DNA of 64,000 bases from an uncultured Anaerolineales bacterium (lineage in GTDB: Bacteria > Planctomycetota > Phycisphaerae > FEN-1346), in contig CAYWVR010000005.1 of NCBI GenBank assembly GCA_964461715.1, forward strand, positions 3,717 through 67,716, written 5' to 3'. Position numbers: made by a program. Of this stretch, positions 12,001 through 24,000 are shown one piece after another (positions within the stretch are counted from its first letter, which is position 1; every line of letters begins with the position of its first letter).

Positions 12001-15000
12001 ATCGACGCCCCGTGGGACCGCCGCACCGAGGTCGCGCGGCAGCTGATCCGGTCGCTTCGGGCCGAGGGCATCGACGTCGTCGCGACGACCGACCGGCTGG
12101 CCGCGTTCTTCAACCTGGAGAACACGTACCTCTCCATCTTCCAGCTTCTGGGTGGCCTGGGGATGCTCCTGGGGAGCGTGGGGTTGGGCCTGGTGGTCCT
12201 TCGCAACGTCCTGGAGCGGCGGGGGGAGCTGGCCCTGATGCGGGCCGTCGGGTACGGGCGGCGCGAGCTGGCGTGGCTCGTCCTCTCGGAGCACTGGCTG
12301 CTGCTGGGGCTGGGTCTCGTGGTGGGCGTGCTGGCCGCGCTGGTGGCCGTCGCGCCGACGCTGGCCGCCGCGGGAGCGGACTTGCCGGCCGTCAGCCTGA
12401 CGGTGACGCTGGCCGCGGTGCTGGCAAGCGGCGTCGTATGGACCGCCGGGGCCGCGGGATGGGCCCTCAAGGGTCCCCTGATGGACGCGCTCCGGAACGA
12501 ATGACACGTATCCTATGCCCGCCAGGGGGGTTGGATATTCGGAGGCCCCGCGCGTAGAATGGGACGCTTCGCCGTGAAGCTGTCCACGGAGAGTGTGTCG
12601 ATGCTCCGAAAAGGGATTCCGATAGGGACCGCCGTCGTCTGCGTCCTGCTGCTGGGGTGGCTCCTCAGCACGGGGTCGGCGTACGACATCGCCCGACGGC
12701 TTCCCGGGGCCGATCGGGTCACCGGGCAGACGGACGGGGCGGCGGGGGTGGGCGGCCTGATCGCCTTCGCGGGTACCCCCAGCGACCTGCCGGGCCTCTG
12801 GCCCGCGTTTCGCGGGACGGACCTCTCGAACATTGCCGACGAGGCCGTGGCCCTGGCCCGCGAGTGGCCCCGGGAGGGGCCGCCGGTCCTCTGGCAGATT
12901 GAGGTCGGCGAGGGGCACGCGGGCGTGGCCGTCCGCGACGCGCGAGTGTACCTGCTGGACTACGATCCGCCGGAAATCTGGCTCTTCCGCCCGGACCATG
13001 TCAAGGAGGGGCAGTGGCCCGCCCTGATCGCGCGGCTGTTCGAGGGCCGAGACGCCGTCGGCACGCCCGTCGGGCGCCTGTGGAGCCGCCTGCCGGCCGA
13101 GGTGCAGATGTCGTTCGAGATGCTGCCCGAAGGCGGCGAGCCGGACGAGGCCATGCAGGCGTCCATCCTCGAAGCTCTGGATACGGTCCTCGACCAGCGC
13201 GACTTCTGGGACCCGGAGGTCTTCGCCCCCATGGAGGAGAATTTGACGGGCGAGACCCGGCGGCTCATCGGCAACATTACCGCCCCCGGGGCCGAGGAGG
13301 CCACCAGCGCCAAGGAGGAGGGAAACCCCCGCGAGGTGCGCCGCGCCAACCGCATCCTCCTCGAGCGCATCCTCGGGGACGCCATCCGCCGGGTCCGCCA
13401 CGGCGACGTCCTGCGGTGCCTGTCCCTGGCGGACGGGTCGGACCTCTGGTGGTACCATTATCCCGTCAAGGTCAAGCGGAACCACGGCATGAGCCGCACG
13501 GTCCCCGCGGTGACCGAGAAGTACATCGTCTCGCTGGGGCCCAAGTGCCACGTCACGTGCCTCCGCACCGAGACGGGCGAACGGCTCTGGGCGAAAGACC
13601 TTGTGCGCGAGTACGGCACCACCGTGCCGCCCTGGTACGCGGGCCAGTGTCCGCTGGTGGAGGGCGGGCGCGCGATCCTGGCTCCGGCGGGGCCGGATGT
13701 CCTGCTGGCGTCCGTCGACTGTGAGACGGGCAAGGTTCTCTGGGAGACGCCGAACCCGCGCACCTGGAAGATGACCCACGGCTCGGTCGTGCCCATGGAG
13801 GTCGCGGGGCGGCGGATGTACGTCTACAGCGCCTCGGGCGGCGTCGTGGGTGTCGACCCCGAGACGGGCGAGGTCCTCTGGGACACGTCCGAATGGCGCA
13901 TCCGCATCGCCAATGTCACAACGCCCGTCGTTCTGGACGAGGGCCGGCTCCTTCTGGCTGCGGGATACGGCTCCGGGGCGATGATGGTCCGCGTCTCGAA
14001 GGCGGCCGAGGGCTTCAAGGTCGAGTCGCTCTGGAAGGTGGGCCCGAAGGTCTTCGGGGCGAGCCAGCACACGCCCGTCTACTATGAGGGCCACCTCTAC
14101 GGCGTCGTGCCGCGCGAGGGCGGGGCCACCGCCGGGCAGCTCGCGTGCCTGGACTTGACGGGGAACGTCCTCTGGACGAGTGGGTCGGAGCACCGGTTCG
14201 GCCTCGGTCCGTTCCTGGTGGCCGACGGTCTGATCTACGTGATGGACGATTACGCCCGCATGACCGTGGCCGAGGCGACGCCGAAAGGCTACCGGCCGTT
14301 GGCCCGGGCCACGATCCTGGACCACGGGCACGATTCGTGGGGTCCGATGGCGGTGGCCGCCGGGCGGCTCTTGGCCCGCGATTACGACCGCCTCATCTGC
14401 CTGGACGTCCGCGACCCGGCCTCGACGGGGGCGAAATGATGCCGCGACAGATGCTCCATCCCGCGCTTCTCGTGCTCCCGGCGCTCGCGGCCCTCGTGGC
14501 CGGCTGCGCCGACGATGGCGACCCGAAGGGCGCCTACCTCGGCGACGAGTGGAGGTATGACCTCGACGAGTACCGCAAGGTCGACCCGGCCCTGATCGGC
14601 TACGAGGAGACCGCGGCGGTCGCCACGGGCCTCCACCAAGTCCGGGGTGTGGCCGTCGGACCCGGAGGCCGGACGTGGGTCGTCGGCGACCGGAAGATCG
14701 TCGCCCTTGGCGAGGAGGGGGCCGTCGAGGTCGAGATCGCGACCTCCGGCGAGCCGCGCTGCGTCACCGTCGCCCCGGACGGGACGGTCTACGCGGCCCT
14801 GCGTGAGCGGCCCGAGGGGGCCGTCCGCGACCACGTCGAGGTTTACGCCCCGGACGGGGCGAAGCGGGCGTCCTGGGAGCCCCTCAGCCCGAAGGGACGC
14901 ATCACGAGCCTCGCCGCGACCGTGGCCGACGTCTTCGTCGCCGACGCGGGCCGGCGGATCGTCATCCATTTCGGCGCCGACGGGAAGAGCGTGACCGAGA

Positions 15001-21000: not shown

Positions 21001-24000
21001 TGGGGCAAGCCCACCCTCGTCAACAATGCCGAGACCTTCGCCACAATCCCATGGGTCTTCCGGAACGGGGCGGCGGCCTTCGCCGGCCTCGGCACCGAGC
21101 GGAGCAAGGGCTCGAAGGTCTTCGCCCTGGCCGGGAAGATTGAGCGGGGCGGCCTGATCGAGGTCCCCATGGGCATCACCATCGGCCAGATCGTCGAGGA
21201 GATCGGCGGCGGGATTCCCGACGGCCATGCCTTCAAGGCCGTCCAAGTGGGCGGGCCGAGCGGCGGGTGCATCCCCGCAAGCCTCGCCGACACGCCTATT
21301 GATTACGAGGCCCTCAAGGAGCTCGGGGCCATGATGGGCTCGGGCGGCATGGTCGTCCTCGACGACACCGACTGCATGGTCGAGATCGCCCGCTACTTCC
21401 TCGAATTCACCCAGGACGAGTCCTGCGGCAAGTGCACCTTCTGCCGCGTCGGCACACGACGCATGCTCGAGGTGCTGACGGGTCTCTGCGAGGGGCGCGG
21501 CAAGAAGGGCGACATCGAGGAACTCGAGCACTTGGCCCGCGTCATCTCGGCCGGGAGCCTGTGTGGGCTCGGCAAGACCGCCCCCAACCCGGTCCTGACG
21601 ACGCTCCGCTACTTCCGCGACGAGTACGAGGCCCACATCCAGGGCCGCTGCCCCGCCGCCATGTGCAAGCCGTTGATCCACTTCACCATCACCGACGACT
21701 GCATCGGCTGCACGCGGTGCGCCCAGCGATGCCCCGCCGACGCCATCGAGCCTCGGCCCTATGAGCTGCACGAGATCGACGACGAGAAGTGCGTCCGCTG
21801 CTACACGTGCCGGAACGTGTGCCCGGTGGACGCCGTCCACGTGGAGTAGTCCCGCCCGCATGCCCACGCTCACCATCGACGGCCGGGAGATCGAAGTCGA
21901 CGAGGGCGCCACCCTTCTGGATGCCGCCCGCCGGCTCGGCCTCGTCATTCCGACGCTCTGTCACCGCGACGGCCACCCGCCGCTGACGTCCTGCATGGTG
22001 TGCCTGGTGAAGGCCCGGAACCCCGACCGGATGCTCCCGGCGTGCACCGCCCGGGCCGAGGACGGCATGGTCGTCGAAAGCGAGACGGTCGCGGTGCGGG
22101 ACGCGCGGCGGACGGCGCTGGAACTGCTCCTCGGGGACCACCTGGGCGATTGCGAGGCCCCCTGCCAGGCGATCTGCCCGGCGGGGCTGGCCATCCCGCG
22201 CATGACGCGCCGGCTCCGCGACGGGGCGTGGGACCAGGCCGCGGCCATCGTTCGGACGGACCTGGTGCTCCCCGCGACGCTGGGGCGCATCTGCCCGGCC
22301 CCGTGCGAACGGGGGTGCCGGCGCGGGTCGAAGGATGCCGCCGTCTCCATCCGGGCCCTCCACCGCGCGGCCGCCGACCGGGACGCCGGCGTTTACGTGC
22401 CGCCCGCCGAGGCCGAGAGCGGCCGCCGCGTCGCCGTGGTCGGGGCGGGGCCCGCGGGGCTGGCTGCGGCGTACCATCTTCTGATGCGCGGCCATGGGGT
22501 CATGCTCATCGATGCCCACGAGGAGGCGGGCGGCAAGCTGCGGACCGACATTGAGGAGGACCTGCTCCCGCGCGACGTGCTCGACGCCGAGATCGATGTC
22601 CTGGCGAAGCTCGGGGCCGAGCTCCGCCTCGGCGAGACGGTCGAGACGCTCGGGGACCTGCGCGGCGAGTTCGACGCCGTCGTCGTGGCCACCGGCGAGG
22701 GCGGCCCGGACTTCGGCCTCGAGACCACCAAATCCGGCCTCCAGGTGGACCGCGCGACCGGTGCGACGAGCGCCGAGGGCATCTTCGCCGCGGGCGGGGC
22801 CGTCCGGAAGAGCCGCATGGCCGTCCGCAGCGTTGGTGAGGGCAAGCGGGCCGCGGCGAGCGTCGACCAGTTCCTCTCCGGCGATGCCGTCGAAGGGCCG
22901 ACCTCGCGCCTTTCCGTCCACATCGGCCAGGTCAGCGACGAGGAGATGGCCGTTTTCATGAACGAGGGGGCGAACGTCCCGCGCGTCGAGCCGTCGGGCG
23001 GCGAGGCGGCGGGCCTCTCGCCCGAGGAGGCGACCCGTGAGGCTGGGCGGTGCCTCCACTGCGATTGCCGCAAGGCCGAGTCTTGTCGCCTCCGCGACTG
23101 GGGCGACGCCTGCGGGGCCAAGCCGACCCGCTACAAGCACGACGAGCGTCGCGTGTTCCGGCAGAACGTGGGAGGCGAGATCGTCTACGAGCCGGGCAAG
23201 TGCATTGCATGCGGCATTTGCATCCAGATCGCGGAGGAAGCCCGCGAACGGCTCGGCCTGGCGTTCATCGGGCGGGGCTTCGACGTCCGCGTGGGCGTGC
23301 CCTTCGGCGAATCGATCGCCGAGGGCCTTCGCGAGACCGGAGGCGCGTGTGTGGCGGCATGTCCGACCGGGGCCCTGGCCCGGATCGACCAGGACGAGTG
23401 AAGATCGCCCACGCCTCCGGCCGAACCATAGGACGAACCGCGCGGCCCGGCCGCGCCCCGTGATGGGGGCTGCATTGACGACGACGCCCGCGAAGCGCAG
23501 CCGGGCCCGGACGTGGTTCTTCCGTCTGGCGGCGATGACGCTCGTGCCGGCGGTCCTGCTGGTGGCCGTTGAGGGCGTCCTGCGGGTCGCCGGGTTCGGG
23601 TATCCCACCGACTACTTCGTTCGCGTCAGGGGCCGGGAGGCATGGACGAGCAACATGCACTTCGCGCGGCGGTTCATGCCGCCGGGCCTGGCGCGCGAGC
23701 CCACGCCGGTCGACGTGGCTGAGGAGAAACCGCCGGGAACGGTGCGCGTTGTGGTCCTCGGCGGGTCGGCCGCCCAGGGTACGCCGGAGGAGCGTTTCGC
23801 CTTAGGGCCGATCCTGGAGGTGATGCTGCGGGAAGCCTGTCCGGACCGGCGGATCGAGGTCGTGCCCACGGCGATGGTGGCCGTCAACTCGCACGTGGTG
23901 CTTCCCATCGCCCGGGACGCGATGAAGCTCGATCCGGACGTGCTCGTCGTCTATCTCGGCAACAACGAGGTGGTGGGGCCGTACGGGGCGGGAAGCGTCC

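Follow-up and report, generated by a model that had tools for sequence, protein, structure and literature searches.

A conserved eight-gene unit in an uncultured planctomycete that may connect cytoplasmic NADH to periplasmic propeller proteins through iron-sulfur clusters

The locus and its genes

We describe here a group of eight adjacent genes, termed g1 to g8, located in a 64,000-nucleotide (nt) stretch of contig CAYWVR010000005.1 (forward-strand positions 3,717 to 67,716; assembly GCA_964461715.1) from an uncultured bacterium deposited as Anaerolineales and placed by GTDB in the Phycisphaerae of the Planctomycetota; best hits likewise point to a Phycisphaerae-like genome. This whole stretch, called the window below, has a GC content of 70%, and all coordinates are window positions. 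The genes encode a flavin and iron-sulfur (Fe-S) module of the kind that reacts with nicotinamide adenine dinucleotide (NADH), a NapH-like membrane protein, two exported Cys-rich proteins and three propellers, which together may carry electrons between the cytoplasm and the periplasm.

All eight open reading frames (ORFs) lie on the + strand between 12559 and 23401, in agreement with an independent gene caller, and the GC content at third codon positions in their frames is 0.82-0.91. Independent calls in three Logan assemblies of the same organism gave products of 626, 339, 79, 191, 482, 585 and 513 amino acids (aa), the caller placing the start of g4 at its second ATG (15694), two codons downstream. 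The genes are, in order:

g1: 12559-14439, + strand, 626 aa; membrane-anchored eight-bladed PQQ_2/BamB-like propeller (Pfam PQQ_2, 1.6e-26)
g2: 14436-15455, + strand, 339 aa; extracytoplasmic six-bladed NHL propeller, with a lipobox in this genome
g3: 15452-15691, + strand, 79 aa; twin-arginine signal or anchor and four Cys, independently called as a gene
g4: 15688-16269, + strand, 193 aa (191 aa from the ATG at 15694); polyferredoxin (Fer4 families) with a twin-arginine translocation (Tat) signal
g5: 16269-17717, + strand, 482 aa; NapH-like polytopic membrane Fe-S protein (PF12801 twice)
g6: 17721-19478, + strand, 585 aa; eight-bladed PQQ_2/BamB-like propeller behind three predicted membrane helices (Pfam PQQ_2, 2.7e-26)
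g7: 19480-21849, + strand, 789 aa; fusion of a NuoE-like (BfuC/StnC) and a NuoF-like (BfuB/StnB) protein (Pfam, NCBIfam and PDB)
g8: 21860-23401, + strand, 513 aa; truncated BfuA/StnA-like protein (PDB alignment, 20 relatives aligned)

They are joined as follows:

g1/g2: ATGA overlap, 14436-14439
g2/g3: ATGA overlap, 15452-15455
g3/g4: ATGA overlap, 15688-15691
g4/g5: TGATG, 16267-16271
g5/g6: 3-nt gap, 17718-17720
g6/g7: 1-nt gap, 19479, followed by a GTG start
g7/g8: 10-nt gap, 21850-21859

Both the ORFs and every one of these junctions were read back from the sequence, which bears out an earlier note on this DNA that had recognized eight translationally coupled genes here. Its title had the operon ending in the propeller and NHL genes, whereas these stand first and the NuoEF- and GltD-like genes last. 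Nor do the eight genes make up a whole operon, as had been supposed, because a co-directional, overlapping run of genes (u1 to u9) extends upstream to window position 4. The unit g1-g8 is the tail of this 17-gene + strand array, and a gap of 54 nt separates u9 from g1. In this gap (12505-12558) begins the sole sigma-70-like promoter match found between 8000 and 26500 (TGGATA-17-TAGAAT, 12532-12560), and a single match does not exceed what shuffled sequence yields (mean 0.6). As the earlier note had also stated, CxxCH heme motifs are absent from all of the g1-g8 proteins, and Pfam and NCBIfam scans of the cluster gave no Nap, Nrf or molybdoenzyme domain.

A truncated Bfu-type module in the cytoplasm

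The g7 product consists of a NuoE domain (PF01257, 1.1e-44, residues 14-156), a thioredoxin-like linker, a NuoF core (PF01512 and PF10589, with GRGGGG and GDEGDPGAF motifs present) and two C-terminal 4Fe-4S motifs, so that the postulated NuoE-NuoF fusion is indeed found on a single chain. Its closest PDB matches are 9bov_B (1.9e-208), StnB (8oh5_B, 2e-204) and NfnB (9n5u_B, 4e-203), and HydB is matched as well. The sites recognized are a 2Fe-2S cluster (C1), flavin mononucleotide (FMN) and NADH binding, a 4Fe-4S cluster (B1), a His/Cys site and the C-terminal 4Fe-4S pair B3/B4. In 53 sequences, the C1 ligands (C83, C88, C125, C129), the B1 ligands (C649, C652, C655, C695), the H719/C724/C729 site and the eight Cys of the B3/B4 region (C741-C781; Fer4_21 at residues 739-787) are all invariant. 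No Cys is conserved in the thioredoxin-like domain of the B part, where the single C270 is not shared by the relatives. In this family, B1-FMN-C1 is the minimal bifurcating site and B3/B4 the ferredoxin side (PMC11829005).

In g8, a 2Fe-2S domain is followed by a GltD-type Fe-S pair, a Rossmann domain for flavin adenine dinucleotide (FAD), a Cys4 motif and a NuoG-type 4Fe-4S domain (Pfam Fer2_4, Fer4_20, FAD Rossmann and Fer4_Nqo3). The protein aligns to 9bov_A, 8oh5_C and 9n5u_A in two blocks, residues 4-280 corresponding to chain residues 6-287 and residues 272-506 to chain residues 427-671. What is skipped, chain residues 287-427 (about 140 aa), is the NADPH-binding Rossmann subdomain of the GltD-like part. 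Further, g8 ends at about residue 671 of chains that are 1172-1178 aa long, and thus lacks the formate-dehydrogenase-like half (about 500 aa) with clusters A4/A5. Both losses are shared by all 20 aligned relatives, which come from different phyla, and some 25-30 residues stand in for the NADPH subdomain. The FAD motifs (GxGxxG, GG and ATG) are kept in the aligned relatives together with all the cluster Cys, and invariant residues comprise C34, C45, C48, C62, H94, C98, C102, C106, C448, C451, C454 and C501. At the position of the non-Cys ligand of cluster A7, most g8 relatives have a Lys and this genome a His; a Lys ligand of this cluster has been described, as has the placement of the FAD at the end of the A-cluster chain in NfnABC (PMC11829005).

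Judged by these motifs, g7/g8 is a member of the Bfu family of electron-bifurcating enzymes. Since the NADPH subdomain and the formate-dehydrogenase-like half are both gone, it is not a transhydrogenase, and of the GltD-like NAD(P)H module previously predicted for g8, the 2Fe-2S, GltD-type Fe-S and FAD parts are present but the NADPH subdomain is deleted in all relatives, so that NAD(P)H could not be bound in the usual manner.

The NapH-like membrane protein and the Tat-exported proteins

PF12801 matches g5 (7e-14) over two stretches. The protein, which has more than 4300 homologues, shows seven to eight hydrophobic segments in a hydrophobicity scan, with a conserved RFPPPEF-xSGY stretch after the N-terminal one. 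Three (G)Cx1-3CP motifs and C192 lie within the membrane or close to it, and an extra hairpin of two membrane helices stands between two CxxCxxCxxxCP motifs. Fifteen Cys are invariant among 73 sequences, including C140/C144, C236/C240, C264-C274 and C436-C446. We infer that C140/C144, C236/C240 and both ferredoxin motifs face the cytoplasm, and that C97/C99 and C192 face the periplasm, which is the arrangement that a transmembrane Fe-S relay would require. Matches to the NapH and MauN models stay far below their cut-offs (TIGR02163, 49.4 bits against 213; NF007013, 44.3 against 234), so that the NapH-type assignment made earlier holds for PF12801 and the two 4Fe-4S motifs, as an analogy rather than as membership. 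An ApbE-type flavinylation motif was considered in the N-terminal periplasmic stretch, but the ESGY sequence there does not seem to fit the SGAT-type motif.

The g4 protein carries a twin-arginine (RR) motif and 16 Cys, all invariant among 57 sequences and sufficient for four 4Fe-4S motifs. Thus the Tat signal and the four cluster motifs of the NapG-type ferredoxin that had been proposed are there, but in NCBIfam no NapG or MauM model is matched at E<=0.001, and the matches are generic ferredoxin or RnfB-type ones below cut-off. The tiny Tat protein with four Cys reported previously was recovered as the 79-aa g3, which has the motif C-x5-7-C-x2-C-x5-6-C-x-LP-x-A and no Pfam or NCBIfam match. 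A simple pattern search detected a small ORF with RR and four Cys between g2 and g4 in 34 of 49 loci, and g3 is a candidate for a carrier of a single Fe-S cluster (or metal). The conserved RR signals of g4 and g3 suggest that both are exported with their cofactors already bound. PDB sequence searches with g5 and g4, and with u2 and u3 from upstream, returned generic ferredoxin or radical SAM matches only. One entry, 9mqx, matches g8 in its N-terminal 2Fe-2S part (9e-12), g7 (1.6e-167) and g4 (1.6e-5) with its chains A, B and E, respectively; it is the top PDB match for g4 and may be the nearest solved multi-subunit relative.

The propeller proteins

The AlphaFold2 (AF2) model of g1 has a mean confidence (pLDDT) of 90, and its top fold matches are BamB and the cofactor-less tetrathionate hydrolase. 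Homologues of g1 number more than 4000. Among 49-51 relatives, C287, H309, C364, H407 and C614 are invariant, as are the polar stretches DYD, RNHG-xx-RT, WY-xx-QCP and MTH-x-S, and conservation reaches at least 90% for C330, H331, C334 and C530. A plain scaffold would not require so much, which suggests an enzyme-like role. The g1 of this genome contains a helical insertion of about 145 aa (residues ~137-277, window 12967-13389; pLDDT of the block ~87-98) that is absent from most relatives (~465 aa) and occurs only in a small group of ~600-657 aa.

In g2 (AF2 model, pLDDT 88), an F-x-G-C-C-N-P motif containing C254-C255 is present in 146 of 146 short representatives at the 50% identity level, at which there are at least 146 clusters. 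The Cys pair sits internally, in a blade loop of lower model confidence; C109 is 92% conserved, and C252 is found in about half of the relatives. Adjacent Cys residues of this kind form redox-active pairs in some thioredoxin reductases, and in Mer and Ars proteins they are ligands of soft metals. The description of g2 as an NHL lipoprotein fits this genome, where a lipobox is present, but only 7 of 146 relatives have one; most carry an N-terminal membrane anchor, and an RR motif is seen in 21 of 138. Fold matches of g2 are to NHL domains generally, including the lyase PAL and the Trx-NHL proteins NHLRC2 and SOQ1. Prenylation of the Cys pair by the linked polyprenyl synthase and prenyltransferase-like genes was considered and set aside, these genes being adjacent in only about 20% of loci.

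The third propeller, g6, has hydrophobic segments at residues 16-34, 86-104 and 140-158. The propellers that the initial description had called PQQ-like (pyrroloquinoline quinone), g1 and g6, do match Pfam PQQ_2 but do not read as quinoproteins. The dehydrogenase model TIGR03075 scores 36 bits for g6 (cut-off 480) and does not match g1, and PF01011 stays below cut-off; g1 has an eight-bladed fold, but quinoproteins rank lower (template modelling score, TM, ~0.3). By model and fold comparison the propellers are BamB- or tetrathionate-hydrolase-like and not quinoproteins.

Conservation of the gene unit

Two scans were made, one of 80 genome loci anchored on g5 and a reciprocal one of 80 metagenome loci anchored on g8; counts are given as loci in which a gene is present over those testable, that is, with enough flanking sequence. 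Around g5, we found g4 in 68/68, g6 in 66/67, g2 in 60/61, g1 in 50/55, g7 in 55/61 and g8 in 48/55 loci, and around g8, g7 in 39/40, g6 in 28/29, g5 in 26/27, g4 in 24/25, g2 in 22/23 and g1 in 21/22. The carriers belong to the Phycisphaerae, Sedimentisphaerales, Pirellulales (including the cultured Rhodopirellula sp. SM50), Thermoguttaceae, Verrucomicrobiota, Kiritimatiellales, Omnitrophota, KSB1, Hydrogenedentes, Armatimonadetes, Poribacteria and Aegiribacteria, together with a Desulfobacteraceae bin. The co-occurrence of NapH-like, NuoEF-fusion and propeller genes in other genomes, which the earlier note had proposed to look for, is therefore conserved in both scans and in several phyla, and it supports g1-g8 as one conserved unit. 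Built from known kinds of parts, the system is widespread.

Some loci carry insertions. L047, from a KSB1 bin, has genes for a TonB-dependent receptor between g5 and g6 and for a glycogen phosphorylase between g6 and g7 (11598-13733 and 15672-18140 cover both insertions), and in L074 a Na/Pi cotransporter and a phosphate-binding-like protein are encoded between g7 and g8 (7865-10525). Apparent natural fusions of g5 and g6 were artefacts, the long ORFs resulting from extension through stop codons.

One could regard g7/g8 as a soluble Stn/Nfn-like enzyme that merely neighbours a separate, quinol-dependent NapGH-like module serving the propellers. The strong resemblance of g7/g8 to soluble transhydrogenases is in keeping with this, as are the general view of NapH homologues as quinol-linked, which PMC8238504 cites from other work, and the presence of the NapH-like part without g7/g8 nearby in six loci. 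Against it stand the adjacency of the two parts across phyla (55/61 and 26/27), the gaps of 1-10 nt in the window and the lack of the NADPH domain in g8, which leaves the pair with no evident soluble substrate, and we regard such a chance arrangement as improbable. The possibility that the pair was a well-known soluble enzyme, only coincidentally adjacent, had been raised at the outset; it is homologous to Stn/NfnABC, yet truncated, and stands beside the NapH-like gene in 26 of 27 loci.

A possible outward electron route

We put at about 0.5 the probability that g1-g8 specify a single membrane-spanning redox assembly that leads from cytoplasmic NAD(H) to the periplasm, with electrons flowing outward through flavins and Fe-S clusters only. 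On the best reading of the sequences, neither quinones nor hemes would be used by this wire. NADH would be oxidised at the FMN of g7, and the electrons would pass along the Fe-S chains of g7 and g8. NADP+, the usual third substrate, would be replaced by a protein partner, since g8 has lost the NADPH subdomain as well as the formate-dehydrogenase-like half. This partner may be the cytoplasmic two-cluster domain of g5, which could dock onto the Bfu module via the FAD or A-chain of g8 or via the B3/B4 domain of g7, where ferredoxin normally binds; ferredoxin itself might take part by confurcation or bifurcation. The Cys motifs on both membrane faces of g5 would then carry the electrons across. 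Outside, the Tat-exported g4 with its four clusters and the Tat-anchored g3 would take over and pass them to the anchored propellers g1, g2 and g6. The best candidate for the end point is the FxGCCNP Cys pair of g2. As a dithiol/disulfide or a soft-metal site, it might act on a substrate that g1 handles. An outward direction is favoured because we see no periplasmic site able to oxidise a donor of low enough potential to reduce NAD+, and because the membrane potential would help electrons to move outward. A second sign of periplasmic redox chemistry is a Tat-signal flavoprotein encoded after g8 in 15 loci. There are precedents for such an arrangement: NapH-like proteins are modular electron movers to and from extracytosolic enzymes, propeller alcohol dehydrogenases included (PMC8238504), and Bfu cores couple to many different third modules, some predicted to be membrane-bound, with 17 clades of the family unassigned (PMC9304861).

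A bolder version of the outward route would have the Bfu core, possibly confurcating electrons from NADH and ferredoxin onto the NapH-like wire, drive a periplasmic reductase free of heme, molybdenum and quinone, with the g2 Cys pair at its centre, g1 as partner and a sulfur compound, disulfide or metal(loid) as its substrate, and widespread in sediment and digester bacteria and in those of the Planctomycetes-Verrucomicrobia-Chlamydiae (PVC) group. This is speculative, and we give it a rather small chance of being correct in full.

It could also be that the same wire runs inward, the propellers oxidising a periplasmic substrate and the electrons passing through g3/g4 and g5 to the Bfu-like module, where NAD+ and possibly ferredoxin would be reduced. 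Bfu enzymes can work in either direction, and NfnABC takes in electrons at the FAD end of BfuA and splits them at the FMN (PMC11829005); NapH-like proteins together with periplasmic propeller alcohol dehydrogenases have been proposed to carry electrons inward (PMC8238504); and g7 retains the full B1-FMN-C1 set along with the ferredoxin-side clusters B3/B4. Reduction of NAD+ would, however, call for a donor near or below -320 mV, and the periplasmic proteins bear no hydrogenase, formate dehydrogenase, molybdopterin, heme or PQQ signature in Pfam and NCBIfam scans and CxxCH searches, the PQQ-dehydrogenase models reaching 36 bits against a cut-off of 480. Electrons moving inward would be opposed by the membrane potential as well. 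All in all, an inward flow seems unlikely.

Several observations weigh against the outward route. The g8 protein keeps its FAD although it has no nucleotide site. In the propellers, g6 conserves no His and, among its Cys, C265 and C502 only, and fold searches with g1 and g2 found no enzyme-specific match. Of the undescribed redox enzyme that the earlier note had suspected in them, to be sought by alignment and structure prediction, the invariant residues of g1 and the GCCNP motif of g2 emerged but a specific enzyme fold did not, and the enzyme accordingly stays putative. Further, g1, g2 and g6 lack an RR signal in this genome and presumably take the Sec route, in which case they would not carry a cofactor inserted in the cytoplasm. 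Work cited in PMC8238504 holds that E. coli NapH oxidises quinol, and quinol could likewise feed g5. The topology of g5 was derived from crude hydrophobicity and charge rather than from a dedicated predictor.

Six g5-anchored loci show no g7/g8 in the flanking sequence that was fetched: L059 and L061 (Verrucomicrobiota), L069 (Novipirellula), L028 (Omnitrophota), L072 and L078. The membrane and periplasmic part would thus be separable and may take another donor. No alternative electron-input module was found near L059, L061, L069 or L047, where the neighbours are unrelated genes (solute-binding protein, sigma factor, Tex-like protein, TonB-dependent receptor and glycogen phosphorylase). Conversely, a g7/g8 pair without g1-g6 upstream occurs in L122, with uninformative neighbours. 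Finally, the full cluster is present in the aerobic Rhodopirellula sp. SM50 (L033), which is awkward for a strictly low-potential, ferredoxin-dependent role.

Planctomycetes, Kiritimatiellia, Omnitrophota, Hydrogenedentota and their relatives abound in anoxic sediments and digesters, and little is known of how they gain energy. If the outward route is correct, a direct coupling of NADH to the periplasm without quinones or cytochromes would be a new way for cells to shed or take up electrons; the Bfu family would gain a membrane-wired member whose third substrate is a protein, and one of its many unassigned clades would receive a function. Cultured carriers such as Rhodopirellula sp. SM50 make the question directly testable.

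Neighbouring genes and a possible role in maturation

The nine genes that precede g1 in the array are:

u1: 4-1065, + strand; propeller, cut by the window start
u2: 1062-2078, + strand; Cys-rich ferredoxin-like protein with two 4Fe-4S motifs
u3: 2084-3277, + strand; radical SAM/SPASM-like enzyme
u4: 3300-5036, + strand; DUF116 fused to a polyprenyl diphosphate synthase
u5: 4978-5862, + strand; prenyltransferase-like toroid
u6: 5942-7141, + strand; propeller lipoprotein
u7: 7158-8447, + strand; GT4 glycosyltransferase
u8: 8465-9169, + strand; LolD/MacB-type ABC ATPase, 234 aa
u9: 9166-12504, + strand; duplicated FtsX-type permease, 1112 aa, overlapping u8 by ATGA

These genes recur near the unit, in varying order, in a minority of the loci. 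The block u6-u9 precedes g1 in 17 of 40 testable genome loci and lies downstream in L085, L128, L151 and L153; u1-u2-u3-u4-u5 follow g8 in L100, L124 and L129, and genes of the block are also found after g8 in L119. A radical SAM gene occupies a gap of the block in L100. A squalene-hopene-cyclase-like gene comes after u5 in five loci (e.g. L129:12124-14049, + strand), so that the accessory block resembles a terpenoid pathway. Its adjacency is partial (u2 in 4/32, u4 in 4/20), and in the Rhodopirellula locus L033, g1-g8 are present and none of u1-u9 is within the fetched flanks. The terpenoid, glycosyl and exporter module is thus more loosely linked and lies outside the invariant core.

This context raises the possibility that the wire serves maturation or maintenance and not catabolism, supplying electrons to build or repair some component of the periplasm or envelope or to keep it reduced. 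Parallels would be NosR, which serves N2O reductase, and MauM/MauN from the methylamine dehydrogenase cluster, and a small Cys-rich Tat protein together with a propeller, NapG/H-like ferredoxins, a SPASM-like radical SAM enzyme and an ABC exporter is reminiscent of the mau and qhp (quinoprotein amine dehydrogenase) clusters. The targets could be the propellers, g3 if it is a subunit that bears a cofactor, or a terpenoid glycolipid that the u-block produces and exports. Such a role would suit a unit that is the tail of an array with a radical SAM enzyme, a DUF116-polyprenyl synthase, a toroid, a GT4 enzyme and a MacB/DevCA-like exporter, whose genes flank the unit in other arrangements elsewhere (L085, L100, L119, L124, L128, L129, L151 and L153), and the cyclase-like gene after u5 in five loci fits it as well. 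The adjacency is nevertheless incomplete, the ABC genes being found in 17/40 loci and u2 and u4 in the few given above, and the Rhodopirellula unit does without the block. No target enzyme with a recognisable cofactor site was seen, and u3 scores well short of the cut-offs of all curated radical SAM families. We consider a maturation role doubtful.

Other genes that follow g8 elsewhere are not in the window. A Tat-signal flavoprotein of the NADPH-dependent FMN reductase family comes right after g8 in 15 loci (e.g. L158:2567-3289, - strand), and a Cys-rich membrane protein (about 190 aa) that contains CPFC/CCPCGYG/CTHCP motifs and matches no Pfam family in 18 loci (e.g. L013:17152-17727, - strand); the two sets of loci do not overlap. 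In the window, g8 is followed from 23463 (+ strand) by d1, a 750-aa tetratricopeptide repeat (TPR) protein with a weak GDSL-lipase-like region at its N-terminus, and then on the - strand by small DUF5989 and SxtJ genes and a carbamoyltransferase (26371-28212). A polysaccharide export/exosortase cluster lies at 39081-52182 (+ strand), with a Wza-like exporter, exosortase EpsH, DUF3485 (EpsI-like), a 1478-aa TPR protein and a chain-length or ParA-like ATPase protein; near it are encoded an MFS transporter, a ThuA-3-keto-disaccharide hydrolase fusion (31545-34187, - strand) and a GH106-like protein.

Comparison with known systems

We found no paper describing the g1-g8 cluster, and neither PMC9304861, PMC8238504 nor the other literature found describes a junction of Bfu-type and NapH-like proteins, a StnA form without NADPH domain or a GCCNP propeller. 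The survey of NapH-like proteins in PMC8238504 covered flavinylation-associated gene clusters only.

The cytoplasmic part is closest to StnABC of Sporomusa ovata (8oh5) and NfnABC of Caldicellulosiruptor (9n5u). Their B subunit matches g7 at about 1e-200 and their NuoE-like C subunit is also contained in g7, with the C1, B1, B3 and B4 ligands and the FMN/NADH motifs conserved, and g8 matches the 2Fe-2S, GltD-type Fe-S pair, FAD and NuoG-type domains of StnA/NfnA. In contrast to these enzymes, B and C are fused in g7, g8 is without the NADPH subdomain (~140 aa) and the formate-dehydrogenase-like half (~500 aa), and the genes of the pair are linked to genes for membrane and periplasmic proteins. 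Membership in the Stn/NfnABC transhydrogenases was rejected, the two parts missing from g8 being those that define it.

NapGH is the accessory quinol dehydrogenase of periplasmic nitrate reductase. With NapGH and MauMN, the unit shares a polytopic PF12801 protein with CX3CP motifs, two cytoplasmic-type 4Fe-4S motifs and a Tat-exported partner with four clusters. It differs from them in the extra N-terminal hydrophobic segment, the third Cys-Pro motif and the hairpin between the ferredoxin motifs of g5, and in having an NADH module attached in place of the quinol link. Neither the cluster nor its neighbours in the window contain molybdopterin, NapB/C or MauA/B domains; with g5 below cut-off, g4 without a match and no nap or mau structural genes, we did not assign the unit to this group.

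NosR, PceC and the flavinylated NapH-like clusters (PMC8238504) likewise provide a modular Fe-S link through the membrane, and some of them pair with periplasmic propeller enzymes. The relay in the present unit would consist of Fe-S proteins (g4 and g3) rather than of covalent flavin, and a dedicated cytoplasmic NADH/Bfu-like donor is encoded with it. Since no FMN_bind domain or ApbE occurs in the cluster, nor in any of the 17 genes of the array or d1, it was not counted among the flavinylated systems. As to the proposed end point, g2 has no sequence relationship to the high-molecular-weight thioredoxin reductases, with their Gly-Cys-Sec-Gly or Ser-Cys-Cys-Ser pair, or to the Trx-NHL proteins SOQ1 and NHLRC2.

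A Bfu BC core genetically embedded with membrane subunits is also found in the predicted membrane-bound complexes Nuo-Bfu and Mbh-Bfu (PMC9304861). Whereas those complexes have ion-pumping modules of the complex I or Mbh type, with quinone or protons as substrate, the unit described here has a NapH-like partner and no pump subunits, and its acceptor, we propose, would lie in the periplasm.

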